Source: Candidatus Hermodarchaeota archaeon (lineage in GTDB: Archaea; Asgardarchaeota; Hermodarchaeia; Hermodarchaeales; Hermodarchaeaceae). Taken from it: a stretch of 13,236 nucleotides of DNA. The notes under the pieces are model-generated. The model was not told the origin of the DNA. It searched no databases and worked only from the letters and a program-made list of their open reading frames with translations. Within the stretch, counting starts at the first letter, position 1. The number at the start of each line of letters is the position of its first letter. A program made the position numbers and the translations under genes. The DNA is taken from the NCBI GenBank assembly GCA_016839805.1, contig JAEOTO010000018.1:1-13236 (forward strand), written 5' to 3'. This document shows, one piece after another, positions 1-13,236 of the stretch.

Positions 1-719
1 CGTTCTCCATCACCTAGGAGAAATTGTTGATCGGGTTTGAGTCGGAGGGGTGCACTCGCGGCTATGGCTTTATTGTTTTCTAAGACGATGACGGCGTGGT
101 TGTCTTTGAGGACTCTATCTTTGAAGTACTGTTTCCAGGCGTCTTCCGTTGGAAACGCTTGTCGGAGAAAAGTATCGGCTTGGGCAAGTTCGATTAAGAG
201 TGGGAGATCTTTGATGGTGGCTTTCCGACTTGTGAAGGTGTTGTCTGTTTTAGATTGTTTCCAGGTACTGACATCGCTAATATCATAGTCGCGGTTATAG
301 CGGAAGACACGTTCTCCTTCGACAAAGCCTTGTTCTTTGAAGAATGCGAGTTGTTTGTCAACGATTTTGCTGGTCAGGACTACGGCGGTACGGATTTCGC
401 GGGTTTTTTTACGTGATTTGAGATAGGTAATCATGTCGTTGAAAAGTTGGGGTTGGACTTCTTTGGGGGCGTCAGGCATGGTCCAGGGGTAGCCGATGTT
501 GGTACGTCCGATTTCAGAATCCGAATCATAAGCAGTGATATAGCCTAAGGGTTCGCCCTTTTCGGTGAGAGCATATCGGGTCATTTTCGCTCCGCGGGTT
601 ATGTTGCGTTGTTCGATTTCTTCGGCGCGGGCTGGAAGCCCGGAGGCGGTTGTGTAGATTTTGGCTTGGATTTCGCCTAAGCCTTTATTGGGTTTGAAGA
701 TTTTATACTCGATTTTCAA
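1..719 (-). CDS. GNAT-fold acetyltransferase-like protein, probably tandem domains; runs off the left edge
   Basis: Absent from the ORF track because it has no stop in the window. Hand translation from TTG at 719 is open to base 1: MKIEYKIFKPNKG...GEPLGYITAY...NIGYPW...QLAFFKEQGF...SRKATIKDLPLLIEL... The F-x-x-x-G-F motif and a second R-K-A-T-x-x-D start are typical of GNAT domains. SD GGAGGT at 729-734 on the minus strand. Confidence 0.7.
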   Translation of the reverse strand, partial: MKIEYKIFKPNKGLGEIQAKIYTTASGLPARAEEIEQRNITRGAKMTRYALTEKGEPLGYITAYDSDSEIGRTNIGYPWTMPDAPKEVQPQLFNDMITYLKSRKKTREIRTAVVLTSKIVDKQLAFFKEQGFVEGERVFRYNRDYDISDVSTWKQSKTDNTFTSRKATIKDLPLLIELAQADTFLRQAFPTEDAWKQYFKDRVLKDNHAVIVLENNKAIAASAPLRLKPDQQFLLGDGE

Positions 720-745
720 AATGGTTCGACCTCCATGAGATTACT

Positions 746-816
746 TAATTGTTCTCATATTATGCGAATTTAATATCATTAAGTGTCTTATAATTATTGT
801 GGTATGAGAACAATTA
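746..816. repeat. Perfect 14-bp inverted repeat with 43-bp AT-rich spacer in a divergent promoter region
   Basis: TAATTGTTCTCATA (746-759) and its reverse complement TATGAGAACAATTA (803-816). Confidence 0.85.
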
Positions 817-924
817 GGGTTCAAAATTCAGGGAACATCACTAATTGTTTAGTATTAACGTAGGTCGTGTTTTGAATTTAAAAACGCGTTCCTTTAAACT
901 AATATTGGTTGAAATTCGCTTTTC

Positions 925-972
925 TTCTCATATGTTGATAGTGTTTTCGCACACTATGAGAAAGTTTATAAC
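925..972 (+). promoter_or_regulatory. BRE/TATA promoter of the DUF362-like gene, overlapped by an 8-bp inverted repeat
   Basis: GAGAAAAG-TTTATAAC (TATA 965-972) lies about 32 bp before ATG 1004. TTCTCATA (925-932) / TATGAGAA (955-962) reuse the core of the 746-816 repeat. Confidence 0.6.
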
Positions 973-1003
973 GTTTTAGCAACCCTTGGAATACGTGATT
1001 TAG

Positions 1004-1858
1004 ATGGAGCCAACAGTAGCAGTAGTAGATAGCGATTCTTTTTCCGAAGCCATTGACCTCATAGGCGGGCTAAGGGGGTTGAATACACCTAACCGCAGAG
1101 TAGTTGTGAAAGTGGGGATTTACAACCCTGAGACTGGAATTTGTACTACGGTGAAGGCTTTGAATGCAATGGCTGCTGTATTTGATAAGGCCTCCGTGGT
1201 TCGTGTGGTAGAGTCGGATAGTGGGGCAGGACCGGGGTTGGAACGCTTGCAGGTGTGGGCGGACTGTTTTAATGATCGGGTGGTTCCTTTCAATCTCTCT
1301 GATGACCCAGAGACCCGAGAGGTCGAGGTGGCAGGTGAAAGGGTTCCTTTTTCCCATATTCTGTTGGAGCCGAATACGTTTGTGAGCACGCATGTACCCC
1401 GGCGGTATGAGGAGGCGGGTGATGAGGATCTGATGAATATGGGTTTTGTTACTAAGAATCTGTTAGGATTGATTCTGGATACAAAGAAATTTCGATTCCA
1501 TGACCAGCTTCCGACGGCGTTGATTGACATGTATGAGGCGGTTGGTGGGATTGACTTGGCGGTATTGGATGCAACGCATGTCTTTCTGGGATGGAAAAAG
1601 AAACGAATCAGTGTGTCTCCAAAATTGCTGATCGTTGGTAAGGATGCCTTTGCGGTCGAGGCAGTTGGAGCTCACTTGGTGGGCTTTGACCCATTGGAGA
1701 TGCCTGTCCTACAGGAAGCTCAGAAGCGGGGATTGGGTGTAATCAACCTTGATGAGATCAATGTCATTGGTGATATTGAGAGCCCAAAACAGATGGTATT
1801 GAAAGCGTTTAGGGGATTATTCCTAAAGAAGGAACGTAGGGCGCGGGGATGGGATTAG
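1004..1858 (+). CDS. DUF362-like protein (divergent)
   Basis: 284 aa. VVVKVG, VVES, TKNLLG, DLAVLDA and LLIVGKDAFAVEAVGAHLVGFDP...LQEAQKRGLG resemble DUF362 family motifs. Confidence 0.7.
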   Translation: MEPTVAVVDSDSFSEAIDLIGGLRGLNTPNRRVVVKVGIYNPETGICTTVKALNAMAAVFDKASVVRVVESDSGAGPGLERLQVWADCFNDRVVPFNLSDDPETREVEVAGERVPFSHILLEPNTFVSTHVPRRYEEAGDEDLMNMGFVTKNLLGLILDTKKFRFHDQLPTALIDMYEAVGGIDLAVLDATHVFLGWKKKRISVSPKLLIVGKDAFAVEAVGAHLVGFDPLEMPVLQEAQKRGLGVINLDEINVIGDIESPKQMVLKAFRGLFLKKERRARGWD

Positions 1859-1910
1859 CGCTACATTGTATTTCTTTTACCGAGTAAATTGGTTTGAGAA
1901 TAATCTGCTA

Positions 1911-1937
1911 GACTGCCTGTTTTTTTAGGTGGCAGTC
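1911..1937. terminator. Hairpin with T-tract loop between convergent genes; possible terminator
   Basis: GACTGCC (1911-1917) / GGCAGTC (1931-1937) with a T7 run in the loop, between stops at 1858 (+) and 1997 (-). Confidence 0.4.
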
Positions 1938-1996
1938 ACTTCTAGTTTCTTGTTACGCTTACCAATAGAAGCACATTGCGTGGCGTCACTGGTTAG

Positions 1997-2407
1997 TTAT
2001 GCAAAGTCCATTTCTAGGCGTTTGATAGCTGTATGAAGAAGGGTTACCGCTTCATCGTTTTTGTTTTGTGCTATTAGGAGTACAGCTTTTTCGAATTCAG
2101 CAAGGGAGGTGGTGATTTCGCGCCAGTAGGGGTTTTGTTTCATGGATAATGCGATGTCCACGGGCATTTGGTAGCGTCGATGTAGCCATCCGATTATTGC
2201 TGCAAGGGGGATGTATATTACGAGGAATATGAAGAGGAAATGAAGGAGTGTCGGGAAGATGACTAGTACACCGGGGATGTTGACTAATACGAGTTCATAG
2301 ACGAGAATGCTGAAATTCATGAATGCGAGGAAGTATACGAGATAGGTTCCGTGTCCGGTTCGGAAGTCTGCCCAACGGCGTTGAAAGAAGCCTTTTTTCC
2401 TTGTCAA
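1997..2407 (-). CDS. Hypothetical membrane protein (about 2 TM helices)
   Basis: 136 aa with TTG start and an AGGTGA SD about 8 nt upstream. Basic N-terminus, two hydrophobic segments and a helical C-terminus. Confidence 0.75.
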   Translation of the reverse strand: MTRKKGFFQRRWADFRTGHGTYLVYFLAFMNFSILVYELVLVNIPGVLVIFPTLLHFLFIFLVIYIPLAAIIGWLHRRYQMPVDIALSMKQNPYWREITTSLAEFEKAVLLIAQNKNDEAVTLLHTAIKRLEMDFA

Positions 2408-2558
2408 TATGAGGTCACCTAGTGCGTCTAATGTATTGATGCCTATTTCTGTGTTTTACTAGTGTTGGCAGTTTCTCAAATATCAAAAAATTGTGGTAGT
2501 AGAAGGTTTTTTTAGCAGAAGTGTTTCATAGGTGTGACCCACTGGAGTGTGCGCCACT

Positions 2559-3680
2559 GTGGTGCTTGAAGCAATCATAACCGTCCTCATGATCATCATT
2601 TTCCCTGGCTTCCTCTTCTTGATGGGTTATGCCTTTTACCTCGAATGGGTAGACAGAAAATTCTATGCCGATCAACAACACCGAATCGGTCCCGTATATA
2701 CTGGTTGGCGTGGAATCCTCCAACCATTCGCTGACTTTGTAAAACTCATGGCCAAAGAGGATATCACCCCCGCAGCTGCGGACAAAATCGGGTTTACCCT
2801 CACACCCATCCTAGCTTTAGCAATTCCCCTGACGACCCTGATGCTCGTTCCCATTGCTGGTTTGACCGGTATTATGTACTTTGAAGGGGACCTGCTCATG
2901 ATTGGATTCTTTAGCACCATGTTTTCCATGATGCTGTTCATTGCAGGTTGGTCGTCTTCGAATCGGTTTGGCTTTACTGGTGCAGTGCGCGGTGTCATCC
3001 AAATGCTCGCCTACGAAATTCCTCTGCTCCTTGCACTCTTTGCCGCGGGTATGGTGGCTGGTAGTCTGAGTCTCACTGGTGTGGTGATCTACCAAGCCAA
3101 TCTTGGCCTTCCTCTTATCTTGCATCCCGCTTTTCTTGGTCTCTTCATCGTCTTCATCTTAGCGGCACAGGCTGAAGCAGAGCGTATTCCCTTTGACGCG
3201 CCAATTGCTGAGACCGAAATTGTCGGTGGCTGGGAAACCGAATATTCTGGCAAGAAACTTGCTTTCTTCCGCCTTTCTAATGATTTTGAAGTCTTACTCG
3301 CAGCAGCTTTAGGTGCTGCCATCTTCCTTGGAGGTCCTCTTGGACCAGAAATCTTGGCTGTTTTTATCAACAATGGCCTCTGGGCACCCGTCACCATCGC
3401 TTCAGGCGAATACCTTATCTATATCCAACAATTCATGCCCTGGCTGCTCAACCCCTTCATCGCCGGTGTTTACTACACCTTCTGGTTCATCCTGAAAACC
3501 ACCATCCTCGTCCTAATCCTCTCCAACATGAAAGCCCTCTTAGCCCGTTGGCGCATTGACCAAATCATCCACACCAGCTGGAAATGGGTCATCCCCTTCA
3601 GCCTCATCATGGTAGGCATAGTTCTTGCCTGGCCATGGGTGATGAACTGGTTCCTCCCCCTCGTCGGAATCGTCCCATAA
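2559..3680 (+). CDS. nuoH: Complex I subunit 1 / NuoH family membrane subunit (complex I-like or group 4 hydrogenase)
   Basis: DRKFYADQQHRIGP, GILQPFADFVKLMAKED, QMLAYE, RIPFD..AETEIVGGWETEYSG and RWRIDQ..W motifs. Start probably GTG 2559 or 2562 after GGAGTG (2544-2549); the ORF track starts at 2547. Confidence 0.92.
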   Translation: MVLEAIITVLMIIIFPGFLFLMGYAFYLEWVDRKFYADQQHRIGPVYTGWRGILQPFADFVKLMAKEDITPAAADKIGFTLTPILALAIPLTTLMLVPIAGLTGIMYFEGDLLMIGFFSTMFSMMLFIAGWSSSNRFGFTGAVRGVIQMLAYEIPLLLALFAAGMVAGSLSLTGVVIYQANLGLPLILHPAFLGLFIVFILAAQAEAERIPFDAPIAETEIVGGWETEYSGKKLAFFRLSNDFEVLLAAALGAAIFLGGPLGPEILAVFINNGLWAPVTIASGEYLIYIQQFMPWLLNPFIAGVYYTFWFILKTTILVLILSNMKALLARWRIDQIIHTSWKWVIPFSLIMVGIVLAWPWVMNWFLPLVGIVP

Positions 3681-3698
3681 GGAGTGTGAAAACAAAAC

Positions 3699-4094
3699 AT
3701 GCCACGACCAGGAGCAATGCAAACAGAAATTCTCGGCACTGTCCTCAGACGAAAAACCGCTACGATACGCTATCCATTCCAAGAAGCCGTCCGCCCCGAA
3801 CGCCTCCGCGGTAAAATCGAACACGACATCGAAAAATGCACCGGCTGTGGCCTTTGCAGCAGGGATTGCCCTGCCACAGCTATCACCATGGTAGAATCCA
3901 CGAAAACCAAGACTAAAAAGAAACCTGAATTCCGATTTGACCGCTGTATATTCTGTGGAACATGCGAAGCAGTTTGCCCGAAGAAAGCAATTACGATGTC
4001 GACATCCTTCGAGATGGCGGCCTTTGATTTAAAGGATGAGAGTCTTATTGTAGTGTCAGAAGATCCAGAGCCCGCGGAGCAGGCTGAAGAATAG
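3699..4094 (+). CDS. nuoI: NuoI-like 2x[4Fe-4S] ferredoxin subunit
   Basis: ATIRYP..RLRGK plus CTGCGLCSRDCP and CIFCGTCEAVCP. Follows nuoH after 18 bp with an AGGAG SD. Confidence 0.88.
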   Translation: MPRPGAMQTEILGTVLRRKTATIRYPFQEAVRPERLRGKIEHDIEKCTGCGLCSRDCPATAITMVESTKTKTKKKPEFRFDRCIFCGTCEAVCPKKAITMSTSFEMAAFDLKDESLIVVSEDPEPAEQAEE

Positions 4095-4128
4095 TTTCTT
4101 CATACTAACGTTTCATTGGATTGTGGCG

Positions 4129-4995
4129 TTAGTGTTGTCCTTTTAGTCGTTCCAACAGTCGGTCCACGACGTGTTGGAAGGCTTCAGCGACGGGGGATTT
4201 GGCGTCGGTGACAATGAAGGGTCTACCTTCATCAGAGAGTAGCATAACCCGTGGATCGAAGGGAAGATCGCCCAAATAGTAGAGGTTGAGGTCTTTGGCG
4301 GCTTGCTTACCGCCGCCTTTGCTAAAGATGTTGGTGACTTCGCCACAATGGGGGCAGTGGAAGCCAGACATGTTTTCGATGAGACCAAGAATGGGAACAC
4401 TCATTTGGCGGACCATATTAGCAGCTTTTCGGGAATCGAGGAGGGCGACTTCTTGGGGTGTAGTGACGATGATGACGCCGTCGAGATCTGAGAGGAGCTG
4501 CATGATGCTAAGGGATTCATCGCCTGTACCAGGTGGAAGGTCGATGATGAGGTAGTTGAGGTTACCCCAATTGACTTTCGAGAGAAATTCACTGATGATC
4601 TTCATTTTAAGGGGCCCTCGCCAGATGACGGGAGTGTCAGCTGTTTGGAGTAGGAATTCCATGGAAACTATAAGGACATTTAGTGGTCCAACGACGGGTT
4701 CCAACCCTTTATCACCGCCGACCATTCGGGCACCTTCCATGCCGAGCATTTTGGGGACATCTGGTCCGTGGATATCAGCATCAAGAATACCGACGGTGTT
4801 TCCCTTCCACGCGAGGGCTGTAGCTAAATTTACCGCTACTGTTGATTTTCCGACGCCTCCTTTTCCGGAGAGGATGACGATTTTGTGTTTGATGTGGCGC
4901 ATCCGCTCTGCAATTTCTTGCTCTGCACTGGTTTGGGCACCAACTTTAAGGTCTTTAGGAATTGTCCCAGATGGGTTTGTGGGTTGTTTAGCCAT
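4129..4995 (-). CDS. mrp: Mrp/NBP35/ApbC family Fe-S cluster carrier ATPase
   Basis: SGKGGVGKS, DADIHGP, VIWRGP, DLPPGTGD, VTTPQ and ENMSGFHCPHC. Start probably ATG 4995 (MAKQ...), since a TATA-like GAAGGTTAAAGG lies just above 5052; the ORF track extends to 5052. Confidence 0.93.
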   Translation of the reverse strand: MAKQPTNPSGTIPKDLKVGAQTSAEQEIAERMRHIKHKIVILSGKGGVGKSTVAVNLATALAWKGNTVGILDADIHGPDVPKMLGMEGARMVGGDKGLEPVVGPLNVLIVSMEFLLQTADTPVIWRGPLKMKIISEFLSKVNWGNLNYLIIDLPPGTGDESLSIMQLLSDLDGVIIVTTPQEVALLDSRKAANMVRQMSVPILGLIENMSGFHCPHCGEVTNIFSKGGGKQAAKDLNLYYLGDLPFDPRVMLLSDEGRPFIVTDAKSPVAEAFQHVVDRLLERLKGQH

Positions 4996-5143
4996 CTTTA
5001 TGCTCACATTCCAAAGTATCGAGTGATTTAGGTGGTCCTTAATGGGGGACACCTTTAACCTTCCGCATCCGTTAAGCTGGCATAAGGCTCAAAAGTGCAA
5101 TAGTTGCTATTGAGTACCTATCATTGTTCATGGAGCTATTTGT

Positions 5144-5842
5144 ATGGTGAAAGTAATTGGTCATCGCGGAAGTGGCAGTGGTCCATTGGAGAATACGTTG
5201 CAAGGAATGAAACTGGCCTTGGCGTGGGGTGTGGATGGTATTGAATGCGATGTTCAAAGTTCTCAGGATGGCGAGCTTATAGTATTTCATGATAGTTCCT
5301 TGGATCGCTTAACAAACGGAACCGGGCTAGTGGCAGAGCATTCGTTAGAAGAATTGAAACAGCTCAAAGTCAGCAACCAAGATAGAATTCCAACTTTAGC
5401 TGAATTACTTACACTGCTTAAACCCCATCGCGATTTGATAATCGACATTGATATCAAAGTTCAAGATATCGAAGCAGAGATTCTGAAAGAACTTCAAACT
5501 CAAGACGTGATTGACCGGACAATTCTCTCCTCTAAGGCTACACAGATTATGCGGAAGATACGTGACTTGAACGCAACCATCGAAACTGGTTTGATATATG
5601 AGTATAATTATGAAGACCCAATTAGTATTGCAATTGATATTGGATGTAAGGCCCTCTTTCCTAGACTCGATTTGGTTTCAAAAGAGCTCGTTCATGCGTG
5701 TAAACAGAATGGTTTGAAGTTGAATCCATGGTCAATCAATTCAGAAGAAGATATGCTCCGATTTATCAACTTGGGTGTTGATTGGATAATTACCGATAAT
5801 CCACAACGGTTGCTCAAAATTCTTGATCGAATGGATAGGTGA
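5144..5842 (+). CDS. Glycerophosphodiester phosphodiesterase (GDPD, UgpQ/GlpQ family)
   Basis: VIGHRG, LENT, IECDV, VFHD..LDRLT, IPTL.E and GVDWIITD.P motifs. Confidence 0.92.
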   Translation: MVKVIGHRGSGSGPLENTLQGMKLALAWGVDGIECDVQSSQDGELIVFHDSSLDRLTNGTGLVAEHSLEELKQLKVSNQDRIPTLAELLTLLKPHRDLIIDIDIKVQDIEAEILKELQTQDVIDRTILSSKATQIMRKIRDLNATIETGLIYEYNYEDPISIAIDIGCKALFPRLDLVSKELVHACKQNGLKLNPWSINSEEDMLRFINLGVDWIITDNPQRLLKILDRMDR

Positions 5843-5846
5843 TATT

Positions 5847-6914
5847 ATGCGAAAGTTACTTCATGAGCTGGTGTTAGCTGATGCGCCTCCTGGTCGTGAA
5901 TGTGAAGTTCGTGATATCATGATTCGCGAAGTCGAACCGCTTGTTGATGATCTGCATGTGGATGCTTTGGGAAACGTAATTGCTCGACGGAAGGGTATAA
6001 CCAAAAAGACTTTCATGCTGGTGGCGCATCAGGATGAGGATTGGGCCTTACTGATTACCCACATCGATGAATTAGGATTTCTTCGATTTACGCGTCTGGT
6101 AGGGCACCGTTGGAATCTTCTTGGACAACGAGTATTAGTTCATGGAACAAAAGGGAAAAAACAAGGAGTTGTCGGGTTACCTGCACCTCATCTTATTCCG
6201 GTGAAGGAACAACAACGGGGGTATCGACCCGAATTCGACAAAATGTTCATAGATTGCGGAACTAAAACTGCTGATGATGCTCAAGAGATCGGATTGGAGG
6301 TTGGACAATATGTGACTGCTGTGAAGCATTTTGGTGAACTCGCGAATAACCGGTTAATCGGTAATTGTTTTGATAACCGAGCTGGTCTAGTTGCGATGAT
6401 TGAAACACTGCGACGCACACATCAACAGGATCTGGGCATGAACCTTGTTGCGGTCGCTTCGGTTCAAGAGGAATTAGACACTCGGGGAGCTCGACCTGCA
6501 GCGTTTGCTATTGAGCCGGATTATGCAATTGCTTTGGATGTTTCAGCAACTGGTGATCACCCTAATATCAAGGAGGATCTCATTCCAGTGAAACTAGGAC
6601 AGGGACCCACCTTGCTTAAAGCAGATCAACATCATGTTACCTCTCAACTTCTTAATGCTTGGATAACATCGCTAGCGGAAAAGCATCAATTTCCTTTACA
6701 AGAAGTTGTATTACGAACCCCGATACACTTTGGTACTGATGCAGCTGCTGTTGAGTTAGAAAAATCAGGCAGTATGACTACAGCGTTACTTGTGCCCACC
6801 CGGTATTTCCATACCACAAATTCAGTTATTGACTATTCTGATCTTGAAATCTTAGTCCAGCTCTTAGTAAAATGCCTTGAATCCCTCGACCAACTAGCCA
6901 AGGGGAAGGACTAA
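5847..6914 (+). CDS. M42 family metallopeptidase (TET aminopeptidase-like)
   Basis: DALGNVIA, AHQDE, FDNRAG, VQEE, ALDV, GTDA and PTRYFHT. Start ATG 5847, with the AGGTGA SD overlapping the GDPD stop; the ORF track starts at 5823. Confidence 0.9.
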   Translation: MRKLLHELVLADAPPGRECEVRDIMIREVEPLVDDLHVDALGNVIARRKGITKKTFMLVAHQDEDWALLITHIDELGFLRFTRLVGHRWNLLGQRVLVHGTKGKKQGVVGLPAPHLIPVKEQQRGYRPEFDKMFIDCGTKTADDAQEIGLEVGQYVTAVKHFGELANNRLIGNCFDNRAGLVAMIETLRRTHQQDLGMNLVAVASVQEELDTRGARPAAFAIEPDYAIALDVSATGDHPNIKEDLIPVKLGQGPTLLKADQHHVTSQLLNAWITSLAEKHQFPLQEVVLRTPIHFGTDAAAVELEKSGSMTTALLVPTRYFHTTNSVIDYSDLEILVQLLVKCLESLDQLAKGKD

Positions 6915-6942
6915 TGCCGAATCAGCGAAATGGCGTGTCAGG

Positions 6943-7494
6943 CTATTCAATGAGCCCCAAATCACGCATATGATCTGCCAGGAGATAAATGGCTTTCCTG
7001 GTGATGGACTCTTTGTTGGTTCCCGCACAGACTATCCGACCGCTGCTAAAGATGAGGAAGACCGCCTTGGGGGTTTTCATTCGGTAGATAAGCCCGGGGA
7101 AGACTTCGGGTTCATACAAACAGCGTTCTAGTGCCATCTGCGCCATGTCCAGGTCAACCCGACTGTGCAAGTCGCCACTGGCGACGATGTTTTGAATAGT
7201 AATTTTCGGCGTGCCACTAACTGTAATGCCGGCTTTACGGATTTTAGCAATCACATTTTCGACGGCTTTTTCGGCTTCACTTTCCCGGCGTAGACCAGTT
7301 ATAACCATACGACCACTATTGAAGACGAGAATGGTGGCTTTTGGATTTTTCACACGTAACATTAACCCAGGGAATTGTTCAGGGTTATATTCAGCATCAC
7401 GTTGTTTACGGGCAAGAAGATTTAGATCTATTTTCGCATCAACTTCGACGCTGGCAACTACATTTTCAATTTTATATTTCGGCCTCTTAGTCAC
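6943..7494 (-). CDS. tbp: TATA-box-binding protein
   Basis: Two TBP repeats: IENVVAS..YNPEQFPGL..LVFNSGRMVITG and IQNIVAS..YEPEVFPGLIYR..LIFSSGRIVCAG. Start probably GTG 7494 with SD GGAGGTG at 7501-7507; the ORF track uses ATG 7527. Confidence 0.97.
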   Translation of the reverse strand: MTKRPKYKIENVVASVEVDAKIDLNLLARKQRDAEYNPEQFPGLMLRVKNPKATILVFNSGRMVITGLRRESEAEKAVENVIAKIRKAGITVSGTPKITIQNIVASGDLHSRVDLDMAQMALERCLYEPEVFPGLIYRMKTPKAVFLIFSSGRIVCAGTNKESITRKAIYLLADHMRDLGLIE

Positions 7495-7526
7495 GAAGGA
7501 CACCTCCCAGTCCAGCTGAGTGTGCA

Positions 7527-7556
7527 TTTATAAACCGTTTATAAACTCTTTATAAA
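7527..7556. repeat. Three palindromic TATA boxes (TTTATAAA) at an exact 11-bp period
   Basis: TTTATAAA at 7527-7534, 7538-7545 and 7549-7556. Confidence 0.9.
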
Positions 7557-7568
7557 GCAGCGATTGCC

Positions 7569-7583
7569 CTTATAAACTTTTTA
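7569..7583 (-). promoter_or_regulatory. Predicted tbp core promoter (BRE + TATA)
   Basis: The minus strand reads TAAAAAG-TTTATAAG, the same AAAAGTTTATAA core as the promoter at 960-971. Confidence 0.65.
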
Positions 7584-7592
7584 TAGTGTCCG
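7580..7592 (+). promoter_or_regulatory. Candidate TAM (TTTAT) plus seed target (AGTGTCCG) of the neighbouring omegaRNA guide
   Basis: TTTAT 7580-7584 is followed by AGTGTCCG 7585-7592, identical to 7806-7813. Confidence 0.65.
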
Positions 7593-7650
7593 GGAGAAGA
7601 TCTGGTCCTTCAAGGCTAGAATAAATCGCGGAGTTTAAATTGCTCAATCC

Positions 7651-7821
7651 GTAGGTAGGGGTGAGGTCCCGATTAGCTGTCCGAGAACCAAGGCGCAGTA
7701 TGGTCGGGCAACATCGCCGGAACGGCGAGTAGAGCCTGTGGACCAGTTGACAATGGTCGATGGCATGAAGCAGGAAGCCCCGTCCCTTAGGATTGGGTAG
7801 TTCACAGTGTCCGCTTACCAA
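7651..7821 (+). ncRNA. Orphan TnpB-type omegaRNA/reRNA (scaffold about 7651-7805, guide from 7806; ends approximate)
   Basis: Ordered hallmarks GTAGGG..CCCGA, GCCTGTGGA (7734-7742), ATGAAGCAGGAAGCCCC, a subterminal hairpin (7777-7798) and GTAGTTCAC ending at 7805. Loop GTGA (7661-7664) is complementary to terminal TCAC, giving a pseudoknot. CCTG (7735-7738) pairs with CAGG (7771-7774). Confidence 0.8.
7765..7805 (+). mobile_element. IS200/IS605-family right end, with no tnpA, tnpB or recognisable left end
   Basis: ATGAAGCAGGAAGCCCCGTCCCTTAGGATTGGGTAGTTCAC: an imperfect palindrome followed by the TCAC end motif, as in IS605/IS1341-type right ends. Confidence 0.8.
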
Positions 7822-7825
7822 CATT

Positions 7826-7860
7826 AAAAAAGGGGAGAGTTCGGCTCTTCCAGAGCCGAA
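7826..7860 (-). terminator. Likely cdc48 terminator: 9-bp hairpin followed by a T6 tract
   Basis: TTCGGCTCT-TCC-AGAGCCGAA (7840-7860) lies about 20 bp after the cdc48 stop. A6 at 7826-7831 reads as T6 on the minus strand. Confidence 0.65.
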
Positions 7861-7879
7861 ATTGGCAGTGTGTACTCGA

Positions 7880-10132
7880 TTAGGCATAAGGGCCTGGTGT
7901 TGTGCTAATAGCGTCGCGTTTTGTGGACATCGCTACAGTATATTCCTCGTAGGCTTTCAACATTTCTGGGGTGATACTGGGTTTTATTTTGTCGAGGGCA
8001 GATTCAAAGTGTTTAGCTTTGACAATAGCTGCGTCTTCTTCAGTACGGATGGCATACATACCTGCTTCACGAACGACATTTGCGAGATCAGCGCCAGAGT
8101 AGCCTTCAGTGATTTTAGCGATTTTTTGAAGGTCTACGTCATCGTGTAGTGGCATATTGCGTGTATGAACTTGGAGAATTTCTAAGCGTGCTTCTTGATC
8201 AGGTGCAGGGACGAGGATGATTCGGTCGAAGCGACCAGGTCGCAGGAGAGCCTTGTCAATGATTTCGGGGCGATTGGTCGCAGCGATAACAACGACGTTT
8301 TTGAGTTCTTCCATCCCGTCTAATTCAGCGAGTAGCTGATTAAGAACGGTTTCGTAGACATGGCTGCCATGCCACTGACCCCGAGCAGGGGCTAGACTAT
8401 CAAGCTCGTCGAAAAAGATAATGCTGGGAGCTACTTGTCGAGCTTTTCGAAAGATTTTCCGAATGCCTTTTTCAGATTCACCAACCCATTTACTGAAGAT
8501 TTCAGGACCACGGATAGCTATGAAGTTGGCTTCGCTCTCGGTGGCTACTGCTTTTGCCAGAAGGGTCTTCCCTCCACCAGGCGGACCCACAAGGAGAATT
8601 CCCTTTGGGGGATCGACACCTACTTTTTCGAATTTACTAGGATATTTGAGTGGCCATTCGACAGCTTCCCGTAATTCCTCTTGCACGTCCTTTAAGCCAC
8701 CAACATCTTCCCAAGAGACTTTGGGGATTTCAAGGTAGACTTCTCGCATAGCCGATGGTTCCGCCCTACGGAGAGACTCATCAAAGTCTGCTCCAGTGAC
8801 TTCGAGATCCTCAATAATTTCAGGCGCAATAGGGTGGTCCTCATCTAAATTGATTTTCGGTAGGATACGACGAAGCGTATTCATAGCCGCTTCACGTGCA
8901 ATTGCAGCGAGATCAGCACCCACCATACCATGCGTTGCATCAGCTAGTTGGTCAAGATCCACGTCTTTCGTAAGGGGCATTCCACGAGTGTGGATGAGTA
9001 AGACTTCTTTGCGTCCACTTCGGGTTGGAACGGGAATTTCAATTTCTCGATCGAATCGTCCCGGACGTCGTAGAGCAGGATCTAAGGCCCCTTCGCGATT
9101 AGTCGCAGCGATGACAATAACGCGTCCTCGGGCTTGAAGGCCATCCATAAGAGCAAGAAGCTGAGCGACAACTCGGCGTTCCACTTCACCTTGAACTTCT
9201 TCACGTTTAGGTGCAATACTATCAATTTCATCAATGAAAATAATGCTAGGTGCTTGTTGAGACGCCTTGTCGAAGAGCTCACGAAGGCGTTTTTCAGATT
9301 CACCATAGAATTTACTCATGATTTCGGGACCGTTAATGGAAATAAACGTAGCATCTGATTCATTGGCAACAGCCCGTGCGAGAAGGGTTTTCCCAGTCCC
9401 AGGTGGACCAAACAAAAGGACTCCCTTAGGTGGATCAATACCAAGACGGTCGAAGAGTTCGGGATGTTTCAGGGGAAGTTCTATCATTTCGCGGACACGA
9501 GCAATGGCTTCATCTAAGCCACCAATATCTTCGTATGTTACGATAGGAGCTTTAGCGGTTACTTCCACCGCTTCGGGTTGAATTTGGATAATTGTATCTT
9601 CAGTAATTTTAACAACGCCTTTAGGCGTGGTGTTCGTGACGACGAATTTGATTTCCCCAAGAGCAAAAGGCGCTCCTGCACTTCGCATCATTGCTTCAAA
9701 CAATGAATAATCGTCACTACGGTAAGCCCCAGCTCCTGCGGTGCTAATAATATCACCGGGAGCAACCGGACGTTGATTCAGACTAGGTTTTACAGCATCC
9801 CCTTCAGCGACAATTCTGACACCGCGTTGGGCGGGAGCTAAGACAACCCGCTTAGCCACCGGAGGATCAATCCGTTTAACTTCAATAAATTCACCAATTC
9901 CAGTTCCTGAGTTATTACGCACAAGTCCGTCCATGAATATTTTTCCTGATCCAGCATGAATCGATTGTCCACGCCAAACCCTAGCACCAGTAGTTTTTTT
10001 CCCAATAATCTCAATGATGTCTCCAGAGGTAACACCCAATCGTTCCATGACTTTCGGATCAACGCGAACGATACCTCGTCCAGCTTCGTCGCTGGGGAGT
10101 GAGACAACTCGAAGTTGAATTTTTTCAGGCAT
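7880..10132 (-). CDS. cdc48: Cdc48/VCP/VAT AAA+ ATPase
   Basis: 750 aa with N-domain (GRGIVRVD). D1 has [24 protein letters not shown] and D2 has [23 protein letters not shown]-terminal ...PYA. Confidence 0.97.
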
Positions 10133-10555
10133 TTAGTCAATTTCCTCCATTAAATCAATTAAGCGTTTACGTACAGATCGGAACTCGGTTGCCATTATTT
10201 GGAAGAGTGCATCATAGGTGTCAAAGTAATGGTCAATCATTGCTGTAAGAAGCTCATCACCAGCATCGGTTAGTCGATAGTAGCGACGCATGGGGCCACG
10301 TCCTTGACTTCGAATCTTGACGTCTCCTTTAATCCACCCTTTTTCTGCAAGGCGATTGAGGAGAGGATAGATGGTTCCCGGTTCCAATTGAATACGACCC
10401 TCCGACATATCTTCGATTAGAGAGGAAATACGCGCTCCGTATAAAGCTTCCCGGCGTAAAAGGTTGAGGACCCAAAACTCAAGAAAGCCACGGTTGATTT
10501 CACGTGTCCACTCTCGGAGTTTATCGATGTTTTTGTCGACAGGGGTTTCGGTCAT
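10133..10555 (-). CDS. PadR family transcriptional regulator
   Basis: RGFLEFWVLNLL..LYG..I..EPGTIYPLLNRLAEKGWI..GPMRRYYRLTDAG. Its TAA abuts the cdc48 ATG. Confidence 0.92.
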   Translation of the reverse strand: MTETPVDKNIDKLREWTREINRGFLEFWVLNLLRREALYGARISSLIEDMSEGRIQLEPGTIYPLLNRLAEKGWIKGDVKIRSQGRGPMRRYYRLTDAGDELLTAMIDHYFDTYDALFQIMATEFRSVRKRLIDLMEEID

Positions 10556-10570
10556 TTTGTTTCCTTCGAA

Positions 10571-10622
10571 TATATAGCGTAACTATATAGTATGACAAAG
10601 CAGTAATACTATTCTTTATAAA
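10571..10622 (-). promoter_or_regulatory. padR-cdc48 promoter with candidate PadR operator palindromes
   Basis: TTTATAAA at 10615-10622. Inverted repeats TATATAG-N5-CTATATA (10571-10589) and ATAGTAT-N12-ATACTAT (10587-10612). Confidence 0.65.
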
Positions 10623-10776
10623 CCTACCTCTTTCATTAATAGCAAAACAGCTCTGCTCGTGACAAAAGCTCAAAAATGGCACTGTTTTCCCAACCTCCCA
10701 GTTAGAAAGACTTTAAAAGCTACACCAAACATTGGCTCTGCACCCCATGACCGGAAAGTACAAGGTGAGCTACCTA

Positions 10777-11628
10777 GTGAAACTGTCTCTTCGCATGAGC
10801 ATTTTACTGATTGCAGCGTTAATTTTAGTTTCAGCCTTTGGTTTTAGCGCTTATTCGACGGTATCGGCTCAGCCCCCTCCGATTCAAATCAACGATATTG
10901 TGGTGCCTGAAGAAGTCGCTCAAGACGAAAATGGACAGGTACAGGCAACCATAATCAATATCCAAAACCAGTCATTTGATGGTTTTGCTAAATTCTATGA
11001 CGATTTAGATGAAATTAGTAGCTATGATCCTTCTGATCCCTTCGAGCCCAGATTAAACTTTACAATCGCAGCGGAATCAGAACTAGATCTTGTTCTCCCT
11101 TACACAGTTGCTTACAACGCGACAATCGGGTTACACATCGTCACGTTCGAGATTGATGTTGGTGGGTTTTCGTTCCTCTTTAACCAATACGAAGTCACTG
11201 TCATTCCAGTAGCCTCCATCTCTTCAATCGTTCCTGGGCATGTGTTTACTCAGGCGCAAGTGGGAACTCTTCTTGTCTCTATTGAAAATCATGTAGATCA
11301 TCTGGTAAATGTGAGCCTGGATGTCTTTGGACCGAAATTTGTGAATGCATCAGAGGAGGTTGAACTCTCACCTGGGCAGAATAATATCGTTATCCCGATT
11401 TTGAATAACGCCACTCACGTCTACGATTTTGGTATTTCTCCAGTGAATGTGTCTATGTATTATAATGATGAGCTGATTGGTAGCCAAGTAATTCTAGTCC
11501 CTGTTGACATGACTCTACCCAACAAAATCTTGGCAGTTATCTTACCAGCAAGCATCTTCCTCATTCTTGTTGTGTTCTATGCGTTTCGAAAGCGACGACG
11601 AGTTCGACAGGCAGCAACCAGTGAATAG
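10777..11628 (+). CDS. Secreted, C-terminally membrane-anchored surface protein (beta-rich, Ig/CARDB-like)
   Basis: Signal peptide ending ...STVSA|Q, an acidic beta-rich body with several N-x-S/T sequons, and a C-terminal TM helix followed by RKRRR. Start probably GTG 10777 (SD AGGTGA 10763-10768); the ORF track starts at 10732. Confidence 0.8.
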   Translation: MKLSLRMSILLIAALILVSAFGFSAYSTVSAQPPPIQINDIVVPEEVAQDENGQVQATIINIQNQSFDGFAKFYDDLDEISSYDPSDPFEPRLNFTIAAESELDLVLPYTVAYNATIGLHIVTFEIDVGGFSFLFNQYEVTVIPVASISSIVPGHVFTQAQVGTLLVSIENHVDHLVNVSLDVFGPKFVNASEEVELSPGQNNIVIPILNNATHVYDFGISPVNVSMYYNDELIGSQVILVPVDMTLPNKILAVILPASIFLILVVFYAFRKRRRVRQAATSE

Positions 11629-11684
11629 CATTAAGAGGGAGATAGACTTCCTCTAGTTTGCTGTACTGTCCAAGTGGTGGAACT

Positions 11685-12317
11685 ATGACCCAACCGCCTG
11701 ATGAATGGGAGAGCCTGCGGCAAGAAATTTGTGAGTGTCATCAATGTCCTCTAGCTAAATCGCGATCGCAGGCTGTTCCAGGGGTGGGACCCAATGATGC
11801 TCAGCTCATGTTTATTGGTGAAGCCCCAGGTCGTCAGGAGGATATCAAAGGAGAGCCTTTTGTGGGAGCCGCAGGTCAGCTCTTAACGAAGTTATTGGAA
11901 CAGGTGGGAATCAAAAGGCAGTCAGTGTTTATCTCTAATGCTGTAAAATGCCGACCACCCGAAAACCGACAACCTACCCGAAGTGAACGTGCTGCCTGTC
12001 GTCCATTCTTGGATCGTCAACTCCAGTATATTCAACCACGGGTAATTGTTCTAGTTGGACGAGTTCCAACGGAGACTCTGCTGGAGACCTCAGTGCGGAT
12101 GGGTGAGATGCATGGGCGAGTCTATCATCGCAACGGTAAGACTTTCTTTGTGATGTATCACCCCGCAGCAGGCCTCTACAATCAAACCCTTGTTCCGACC
12201 TTGGAAGAGGACATGCAGAAACTAAAGAAACTACTACATAGTGACCCAGCGCCAGCAGAGGAGCGGGAACAAGGACAACTACCCCTGAGTGAATTTTTCT
12301 CTGAAGAAAAGAAATGA
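11685..12317 (+). CDS. udg: Family 4 uracil-DNA glycosylase ([4Fe-4S]) with C-terminal PIP box
   Basis: CHQC, IGEAPG..ED..G.PFVG.AG, KCRPP.NR.P...C and YHPAA. Tail QLPLSEFF. Start probably ATG 11685; the ORF track starts at 11658. Confidence 0.93.
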   Translation: MTQPPDEWESLRQEICECHQCPLAKSRSQAVPGVGPNDAQLMFIGEAPGRQEDIKGEPFVGAAGQLLTKLLEQVGIKRQSVFISNAVKCRPPENRQPTRSERAACRPFLDRQLQYIQPRVIVLVGRVPTETLLETSVRMGEMHGRVYHRNGKTFFVMYHPAAGLYNQTLVPTLEEDMQKLKKLLHSDPAPAEEREQGQLPLSEFFSEEKK

Positions 12318-12334
12318 ACAACAACTTAAAGATG

Positions 12335-12796
12335 CTATTCTTCATCTTCGAGGGCGGTTTCAAGTTGTGCACGCCGTCGGGCAAGGAATGATTGGAGCTC
12401 ACCTTGCATTTGCGCACGAATACCAAAACCACCAGTTGCAGCCATGGGAGAGGTCGGCGTTCTTGGTGGTGGTGCAGCCATACCTGGTGGCACACTGGGT
12501 CCTGCAGGACTTCCAGGCGGCATTCCAGGGCTAGGTGGTGGCGTAAGAGGAGCTTCAGCAGCATCAGGAGTTCCAGCGGTTGGAGCTGTGGCGCTTGTTC
12601 CACCGATACGGAGCACTGTATCAACTTGAGTTTCAATCTTGGATAGCCGAGTCCTCATTTCGTCGAGTTGCTTTTCTAAAGCGCCAACCCCGTTGAGAAA
12701 AATTGTAGCCACTCTTTCAAGGACTTGAGCCAGTTCTTCAACTTTTTTAGACATATCCTTTTCCGCTGCTAGAAAATCAAAACCACCAAATGCCAT
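12335..12796 (-). CDS. Hypothetical coiled-coil / proline-rich protein with C-terminal amphipathic-basic helix and acidic tail
   Basis: 153 aa ATG ORF with a TATA-like TTTTAAAC about 30 bp upstream. It fills the gap between udg and the methyltransferase, and its modular composition is protein-like. Confidence 0.85.
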   Translation of the reverse strand: MAFGGFDFLAAEKDMSKKVEELAQVLERVATIFLNGVGALEKQLDEMRTRLSKIETQVDTVLRIGGTSATAPTAGTPDAAEAPLTPPPSPGMPPGSPAGPSVPPGMAAPPPRTPTSPMAATGGFGIRAQMQGELQSFLARRRAQLETALEDEE

Positions 12797-12911
12797 TCTC
12801 TATCGACTTCACTGTAGATTAATTAGTTTAAAACCTTGTGGGGTATGAGGGCTATTCAAAGCAGTTTTTAGAGAAAACCAATGAATAACCCATTCTTACC
12901 GTTATTATACA

Positions 12912-13236
12912 ATGGAAGTCTTGGATATGCACCTTTCATGCGTGTACACACGGTTAGTAACACAGTTACTAGGCCTACTTCATCGTCGCATCCAACGAAA
13001 ACGCATAGTGGACCTCGAAGGACTTCAGGTTCAGATATGTCCCCATGTCTTCAACCCATTAACAGCTCGAACGACAAAATTTTTCATACAACATATGCGA
13101 ATTCAGCCTGATACGCGGGTATTAGAAATTGGGACAGGAACGGGAGCAATCGCCGCTGCTGCGGGTAGAATAACCAGTCCTGTCGTTGCTACTGATATCA
13201 ATCCATATGCCGTAGAATGTGCTCAGAAAACAATGA
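12912..13236 (+). CDS. Class I SAM-dependent methyltransferase, HemK2/PrmC-like; runs off the right edge
   Basis: Absent from the ORF track. Hand translation from ATG 12912 (or 12927): ...ICPHVFNP...RVLEIGTGTGAIAAAA...VVATDINPYAVECA..., containing SAM motif I and the acidic post-I motif. Confidence 0.85.
   Translation, partial: MEVLDMHLSCVYTRLVTQLLGLLHRRIQRKRIVDLEGLQVQICPHVFNPLTARTTKFFIQHMRIQPDTRVLEIGTGTGAIAAAAGRITSPVVATDINPYAVECAQKTM

Follow-up and report, generated by a model that had tools for sequence, protein, structure and literature searches.

An omegaRNA-like IS200/IS605-type mini-element upstream of tbp in an Asgard archaeon: a duplicated TAM-proximal target as a probable junction by-product

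Introduction

In a genome of Candidatus Hermodarchaeota archaeon (assembly GCA_016839805.1), the spacer between tbp, the gene for the TATA-binding protein, and a cdc48/VCP-type gene carries a stretch that ends in TTCAC and is followed by 8 nt, AGTGTCCG, which recur at the other end of the same stretch, directly behind TTTAT. This arrangement raises the question of whether an RNA made from the stretch is directed at the tbp promoter or whether the repeat records the way in which the stretch arrived there. The initial annotation of this DNA favoured the former and proposed that a domesticated orphan omegaRNA, loaded by a TnpB or TldR encoded in trans, binds at the TAM and an 8-nt seed but leaves the DNA uncut, and thereby adjusts transcription of tbp and perhaps of itself. 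Here we analyse the whole stretch of 13,236 nt (contig JAEOTO010000018.1, positions 1 to 13,236; referred to as the window) together with the remainder of the genome and its congeners. The best explanation, and one that we consider quite probable, is a non-autonomous IS200/IS605 mini-element (PATE/MITE type) with a junction by-product at tbp, rather than an evolved regulator.

The tbp–cdc48 locus

The features of the locus are listed in Table 1. On its left side the element is bordered by TTTAT, AGTGTCCG and then GGAGAA, and its right side has the terminus GTAGTTCAC with TTCAC at 7801–7805, followed by AGTGTCCG at 7806–7813 and by CTTACC, so the sequence is as first described, including the end of the match after 8 nt. 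Examination of ORFs and Pfam matches also bore out the statement that neither tnpA nor tnpB is present within the window. A 105-aa ORF at 7570–7887 (minus strand), which has no Pfam match, was dismissed as an artefact of the element.

Table 1. Features of the tbp–cdc48 region in the window (a slash marks the insertion point).
Feature	Position	Strand	Basis or remark
tbp (TATA-binding protein)	6943–7527	minus	Longest ORF; Pfam PF00352, E = 9.5e-57
tbp upstream region	7527–7586	minus	Five TATA-like boxes, TTTATAAA type, kept across the genus; element abuts the distal edge
TAM TTTAT	7580–7584	plus	yTTAT directly 5' of the element across 32 copies; empty congener sites end the block at TTTTTAT/A
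Left AGTGTCCG copy	7585–7592	plus	Stands where standard copies have their 10-nt left-end linker (C-TAAAGnyyC)
Left-end core GGAGAAGA and imperfect left-end hairpin	7593–7633	plus	Conserved in each of the 32 copies and, at C41:10503–10566, in the full-length tnpB element
Internal TATA-like box TTTAAAT	7634–7640	plus	Columns T43–T48 at least 90% conserved in the 32-copy alignment
omegaRNA-like scaffold / right end	7660–7805	plus	Four predicted helices, near-invariant unpaired blocks, terminal TTCAC at 7801–7805
Presumptive guide	7806–7825	plus	Flank 3' of the right end; copies all diverge directly past TTCAC
cdc48/VCP-type AAA ATPase	7880–10132	minus	Pfam CDC48_N, CDC48_2, 2x AAA

The true start of tbp is probably the GTG at 7494, which is preceded by an SD-like GGAGGTG (7501–7507). 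Since the genome has two further tbp-like genes (G000:C19:108–490 and G000:C20:9223–9605, with 75% and 71% nucleotide identity to the window tbp, respectively), this gene is one of three paralogues. On the other side of the spacer, a terminator-like hairpin of cdc48 that is kept in the congeners lies downstream of the presumptive guide, at 7840–7860.

The five TTTATAAA-type TATA-like boxes upstream of tbp stand in tandem and include the genus-conserved blocks GCATTTATAAAC, TTTATAAAGC and CCCTTATAAACTTTTTATA; TBP might bind there and so regulate its own gene. On the minus strand, the TAM TTTAT is itself part of a conserved TATA-like block in this region. The TAM and the adjoining 8-mer touch only the most distal of the five boxes. 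The proximal boxes are the likelier tbp core promoter, because an SD-led tbp mRNA would start before 7507, and the site would then lie roughly 55–75 nt upstream of the transcription start. An overlap of the site with the tbp BRE, as had been proposed, is not established, given that there are five TATA-like boxes at 7527–7586 and only the most distal one is touched.

Two independent contigs cover the left junction, which is therefore real and is shared by a related strain: a Logan contig of what is probably the source run spans 7300–7734 with no differences, and a 226-nt contig from a different study spans 7450–7675 with six differences and no gaps. The right junction is read from the MAG contig alone. 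Read support was judged from contigs only, and the source-run bins at 7813–8055 are uncovered, which proves nothing. The 'joints' listed in the contigs have short sides of 21–41 nt and come from other organisms; among the public-run contigs over the locus, none was seen that bridges an empty site in the same strain.

A family of mini-elements derived from a tnpB-only parent

A genome search with the stretch 7570–7830 gave ten further matches in the same 2.3-Mb, 87%-complete MAG, and by this similarity 7585–7805 is one of about ten diverged orphan copies in this Asgard (Hermodarchaeum-genus) MAG. When aligned on their right ends, the copies have GTAGTTCAC in common and diverge immediately after it, and their flanks are unrelated; this agrees with the suggestion that the flank downstream of TTCAC would be the guide. 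The length assigned to the guide in Table 1 is taken from TnpB of the ISDra2 type and is presumptive.

A profile search recovered 32 distinct full-length copies of ~212–221 bp from this genome and its congeners, with a mutual identity of 75–81%. Positions 1–64 of the profile match the left end, and positions 120–212 the right end, of a 1.3-kb element at C41:9285–10576, which consists of TTATC, a 9-nt linker, GAGAAGACCC with its hairpin, a TATA-like box, a 401-aa tnpB and GTAGTTCAC. Because the profile matches both ends of this full-length element, the window element is evidently an internal-deletion derivative, ~220 bp long, of a tnpB-only (IS1341-like) IS200/IS605 element, in which a left end of ~75 nt is followed directly by the final ~145 nt of the parent, the part in which TnpB omegaRNA scaffolds are located. 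The original identification of an orphan IS200/IS605-type element with an omegaRNA-like scaffold ending in TTCAC has thus been upheld, and the element has gained a multi-copy family and a tnpB-linked parent. Most of the 32 copies are preceded by yTTAT, and the empty sites at two loci place the insertion at TTAT/A. The position of the core GGAGAAGA is that expected of the TnpA guide tetranucleotide. Both ends carry subterminal hairpins, GAAGAcccNgtcc-TTCA-ggNcggg on the left and GAAGCcccgtcc-TTCAGG-tcgggg on the right, which are direct and not inverted, and alignment of the copies revealed no terminal inverted repeats in the element.

The TnpB encoded by the C41 element aligns end to end with ISDra2 TnpB (8H1J/8EXA, E = 7e-68), has a zinc ribbon and keeps the three RuvC residues (in GIDVG, VESLN and DRDLNAA). 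Thus, the TnpB that had been postulated to act in trans is found elsewhere in the genome; the window genome (G000) has 12–14 tnpB genes, and the mini-elements reach up to 17 matches per genome. The postulated TldR-like nuclease-dead effector fared less well, as both TnpBs of the same element type, on contigs C41 and C22, have an intact D-E-D triad. The cognate Y1 TnpA (PF01797) gave no matches in the 87%-complete MAG, an incomplete assembly that cannot prove absence. Among 19 genomes of the GTDB family, one has a PF01797 Y1 transposase, which belongs to an unrelated IS (G013:C208).

A conserved 21-mer, scanned against public collections of metagenomes and genomes, brought up mainly copies already known and a single new one. 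A left-end search for full-length elements in relatives gave only the C41 element and one unreliable match.

Two further TnpB-like ORFs of G000, at L016:517–1836 (contig C26, ~95408–96727; 439 aa) and ending at C46:4353 (~353 aa), keep the RuvC-I and RuvC-III aspartates and have Gly/Ala (LGALD, LGALN) where the RuvC-II glutamate aligns. They are distant, belonging to another TnpB clade with other element ends, and might be either proteins with a relocated glutamate or nuclease-impaired relatives of TnpB.

The scaffold as an RNA

The scaffold of the window element is homologous to the 3' ends of tnpB elements at C41:9285–9377 and C22:21756–21845, which lie directly 3' of the tnpB stop codons and overlap them, with ~72% identity over the last 90 nt. 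Its consensus structure in the alignment of the 32 copies comprises 34 pairs, of which 16 show compensatory changes, and its single-sequence MFE has a z-score of -3.95. The internal unpaired blocks (e.g. 7727–7747) are nearly invariant though the copies differ by ~20% overall, and they are far from the subterminal hairpins that the transposase needs, of which the right-end one is at ~7778–7797. Because the helices covary and the near-invariant unpaired blocks are far from the ends, the alignment argues for selection on the RNA, beyond that on transposase-binding ends. Rfam 15 had no relevant match to the whole window at the gathering threshold or to 7540–7860 at E ≤ 10, and it appears to be without a model for this type of scaffold.

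In the full-length C41 element, the place that matches the internal TATA-like box is taken by TTCAAATA, ~25 nt before the tnpB start. The TTTAAAT box of the mini-element may hence occupy the former position of the tnpB promoter and would drive a transcript of the scaffold. A 151-nt contig of a related copy from metatranscriptome run X20, which aligns to 7683–7805 of the window and comprises the scaffold up to TTCAC and 28 nt of its own flank, hints weakly at transcription of the scaffold together with the guide in this family.

The tbp–cdc48 spacer in congeners

All 14 congeners match the tbp query stretch. Five of their tbp loci came out in the opposite orientation and were excluded from the reading of the spacer, and in the nine that were read the orthologous tbp–cdc48 spacer is empty without exception. 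In these spacers the conserved upstream block ends in ...CCCTTATAAACTTTTTAT/A and is followed by ~40 variable bases and then by the cdc48 terminator hairpin. The right flank of the element is homologous to this spacer, and the sequence homologous to the left AGTGTCCG is present in the relatives once. In the nearest relative, which is 94% identical over the tbp query stretch, the spacer is likewise empty and the sequence past TTTAT aligns at 9 of 14 positions with AGTGTCCGCTTACC, in a single copy. As the congener spacers are empty and the target is single-copy, comparison of the sequences dates the insertion as recent and lineage-specific, after the split from the nearest sequenced relative, and identifies the right AGTGTCCG (7806–7813) as the ancestral copy. 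The same empty sites place the insertion exactly at TTTAT/A, in accord with the assignment of TTTAT as the TAM.

Neither the 8-mer region nor the guide–target pair is conserved among the nine congener spacers read. The initial annotation had itself named, as what would count against it, relatives with an empty site and no conserved pairing, and this is what the comparison found. Domestication as a regulator of tbp does not fit these data, in which the element is one of ~10 diverged selfish copies and is absent from all nine spacers.

Duplication of the TAM-proximal target in two of 32 copies

In 30 of the 32 copies, the left junction consists of yTTAT, the linker C-TAAAGnyyC and GAGAAGACCC; this standard 10-nt linker is related by descent among the copies and bears no similarity to the right flank. 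The window copy instead reads TTTAT, AGTGTCCG-G, GAGAAG ... TTCAC, AGTGTCCG-C, and a second copy, at C41:21397–21617 (minus strand), reads TTTAT, AGCCTCCAC, GAGAAG ... TTCAC, AGCCTCCAC, with a repeat of 9 nt. Both belong to the window genome; the other 30 have no duplication. At the C41 locus, four congeners carry CCyTTAT/AGCCTCCAC/A once. Because the relatives carry each of the two sequences once, both repeats are true duplications, and on this comparison they are insertion-associated duplications of the TAM-proximal target that replace the linker. The initial annotation had held that elements of this kind make no target-site duplication, a rule that this copy, with 8 bp duplicated, contradicts; the guide–target pairing, which it had taken to be evolved, is a duplication associated with insertion and has a counterpart at the unrelated C41 locus.

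An accidental repeat of two 8-mers without mechanistic meaning might be considered, in that a TAM-flanked 8-nt match is expected somewhere in a 2.3-Mb genome for many guides. Here, however, the match falls precisely on the left junction of the element itself, a second copy has one of 9 nt in the same register, and the sequence is single in relatives at both loci. For two of 32 copies to have such matches (8 and 9 nt), at 4^-8 each, the probability is ~1e-7, so that chance is effectively refuted and can be given next to no weight.

The two duplicated copies fix the boundary between the TAM and the element at TTAT/. Both insertions split the heptamer TTTAT/AG, which on the strand of the divergent gene reads CT/ATAAA, a TATA-like box. 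The duplicated segments end in TCCGC (window) and TCCAC (C41), which are also the linker ends of the copies L078, L047 and L080, and we read the duplication as a secondary replacement of the linker rather than as the mark of a different family. Between copies of the family ~20% of positions differ; that both repeats match perfectly (8/8 and 9/9) could reflect either recency or constraint.

Alternatively, both special copies can be parsed as left-truncated elements, starting at N-GAGAAG and ending with TTCAC, that are flanked by a true 8-bp target-site duplication produced by the staggered cuts of some enzyme, TTTAT being only an AT-rich preference. The lack of a detected Y1 transposase for the family makes another route of mobilisation conceivable. 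However, the distance from TTAT to GAGAAG is 9 nt in both copies (10 in the 30 standard ones), which is the place of the TAM and is unlikely to be coincidental; in both, the duplicated segment ends in a linker-like TCCRC; and neither the 30 copies devoid of any duplication nor the missing terminal inverted repeats suit such an enzyme. We consider staggered-cut insertion an unlikely explanation and a weaker rival of templated repair.

At the C41 locus, the SD/start of a small-GTPase gene follows ~45 nt downstream of AGCCTCCAC. The second duplicated copy abuts the promoter region of this gene (L004:1690–1760 in G000:C41), whose product is Ras/Rab-like with the N-terminus MARQQAPLVKILVAG..., and the sequence CCyTTATAGCCTCCAC upstream of it is kept in four congeners. 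Selection for promoter integrity, entertained as the reason why only two copies are duplicated, fits this C41 locus, where relatives keep the 9-mer. It does not fit tbp, where the 8-mer region is not conserved among congeners, and it is further opposed by four standard copies that lie 59–126 nt from divergent ORFs; it is kept only as a possibility.

A possible origin of the duplication

The reading that we prefer, a mini-element with a junction by-product, can be set out as a series of events. The element entered the region upstream of tbp at its distal edge, directly behind the TAM TTTAT, and its RNA would probably be made from the internal TATA-like box. TnpBs of the same element type, which are nuclease-active and encoded on contigs C41 and C22, would probably load this RNA in trans, as described for the PATE-borne omegaRNAs of bacteria; with a scaffold only ~72% identical to the tnpB-linked ones over the last 90 nt, such loading is plausible. 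The full-length target of the guide would be the empty tbp–cdc48 site, which would serve homing and retention of the element; most likely, then, the element is a selfish cassette for a guide RNA, with the empty site as its real target.

At the left junction, the normal 10-nt linker has been replaced by a second copy of the first 8–9 nt of the target. TnpA-only models confined to a single molecule, with alternative cleavage at the TTCAC-like TCCRC, were rejected, as no second copy of the segment can arise from them. A further template must be involved because single-strand Y1 transposition on one molecule cannot give two copies, and a templated event is favoured because the duplicated segments share the TCCGC/TCCAC microhomology with linker ends. 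We tentatively propose, on the basis of two cases and a microhomology recognized post hoc, that the replacement may have occurred by repair templated on an uninterrupted strand or allele, a possibility that we hold somewhat more doubtful than not.

Two routes can be envisaged. In one of them, insertion into a transiently melted duplex would leave a loop that, by way of the shared TCCRC, pairs anew with the uninterrupted strand; patch repair would then correct the resulting 4–5-nt bubble to the target sequence. In the other, an empty allele cut by TnpB would prime on the filled allele at the microhomology and leave a homing scar. Either route would give the order TAM, 8–9 nt of target, core, right end, target, and would restore the native 8–9 bp beside the TATA-like box (CT/ATAAA) of the divergent gene. 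At a left junction occupied in this way, the element's own guide could at most bind and would not cut.

Could the element regulate tbp?

Several observations are compatible with the original proposal of a domesticated guide RNA that tunes tbp. The tbp site is the only TTAT-flanked 8-nt match to this guide in the assembly, and the TAM itself is within a conserved TATA-like block upstream of tbp. Natural TldR guides are 9–11 nt long with a seed of ~6 nt (10.1101/2023.11.30.569447), and wild-type TnpB, when given a guide of 10 nt, binds but does not cut (PMC13507860). The internal TATA-like box could drive the RNA, and two distant TnpB-like ORFs have no aligned RuvC-II glutamate. These points are to be set against the absence of the element from the nine congener spacers read, the nearest relative included, the like match at the unrelated C41 gene, which marks it as a junction by-product, the lack of such a match in eight of the ten sibling copies of this genome, and the catalytically intact TnpBs of the same type. 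The site overlaps only the most distal of five boxes, ~55–75 nt upstream of the start positions that the proximal boxes would specify, and the genome has two further tbp paralogues. Moreover, 8-nt TAM-flanked matches are common by chance. AGTGTCCG occurs 30 times in the genome, and chance gives 4 of the 11 other guides examined a TTAT[N]-flanked match of 8 nt at another place; with such matches for about one-third of the guides, 8 nt give little targeting specificity. We regard a domesticated regulator of tbp as very unlikely and RNA-guided binding at the tbp upstream region as physically possible but unsupported, and just as improbable.

A further variant, in which the omegaRNA and a TnpB acting in trans would bind, without cutting, the duplicated site at the tbp TATA-like box and either dampen tbp transcription or block excision of the element, also seems to us quite unlikely. 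If true, it would represent a natural initial step from a selfish guide RNA to a TldR-like regulator, caught soon after it arose.

Relation to known systems

In bacteria, PATEs encode omegaRNAs that are used by TnpB in trans (Meers et al. 2023, PMC10055086). The closest parallels are the PATE-like ISGst elements of Geobacillus stearothermophilus (PMC10055086), which similarly have no protein gene, bear subterminal hairpins at both ends, occur in multiple copies, supply an omegaRNA for a TnpB in trans and have a TAM at the left end and, at the right end, a terminal motif encoded by the transposon itself. The present element differs in its Asgard host, in having a tnpB-only parent and in that its cognate TnpA was not found in the 87%-complete MAG; two copies here also have the 8–9-bp TAM-proximal duplication in place of the linker, which is undescribed for that family. 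By these features the element belongs with the omegaRNA-bearing IS200/IS605 mini-elements, a known class to which it adds a new member from an archaeon (Asgard), and the TAM-anchored 8–9-bp target duplication that replaces the left-end linker is an unusual but reproducible variant of its junction.

The ISDra2 TnpB–omegaRNA complex (PDB 8H1J, 8EXA) resembles the system described here in the whole-length alignment with the C41 TnpB, with its D-E-D triad and zinc ribbon, and in a scaffold that overlaps the 3' end of tnpB and reaches the right end, with the downstream flank as the guide. The TAM is yTTAT here, whereas it is TTGAT in ISDra2; the scaffolds are unrelated at the nucleotide level, ours is without an Rfam model, and in the window the RNA gene stands alone. 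With TldR (Wiegand et al., 10.1101/2023.11.30.569447) the locus shares a TAM and an 8–9-nt TAM-proximal match beside promoter-like sequence. Unlike in TldR systems, there is no linked nuclease-dead effector here, the same-type TnpBs are intact, the pair is not conserved in relatives, the pairing stems from duplication at insertion, and effector, guide and target gene do not form one conserved locus.

Protein-less and apparently self-promoted TnpB guide-RNA cassettes have thus been proliferating in Asgard (Hermodarchaeum-genus) genomes. The finding of no matching TnpA in these genomes gives more point to the question of how tnpB-only elements are mobilised. The rule of no target duplication is broken, in a precise and TAM-anchored manner, by two of the 32 copies, which may carry the footprint of templated repair or homing in nature. 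Such a footprint yields pairs of guide (or seed) and target at promoters for free, which makes it plausible raw material for regulators of the TldR type.

Other insertions of the family provide some further detail. The copies L077:363–573 (G006) and L042:1474–1683 (G005) represent the same insertion with the same flanks in two species, and some copies are therefore old and have been retained; this insertion has a linker that lacks 1 nt and that begins, like the right flank, with the 4 nt CTAA. The tnpB-linked element at G000:C22:21756 and the loci L046, L050 and L051 have nearly the same right flank, GAAGyGTTTAATCGAA, in several genomes, reflecting either a conserved insertion site or a repeated target sequence.
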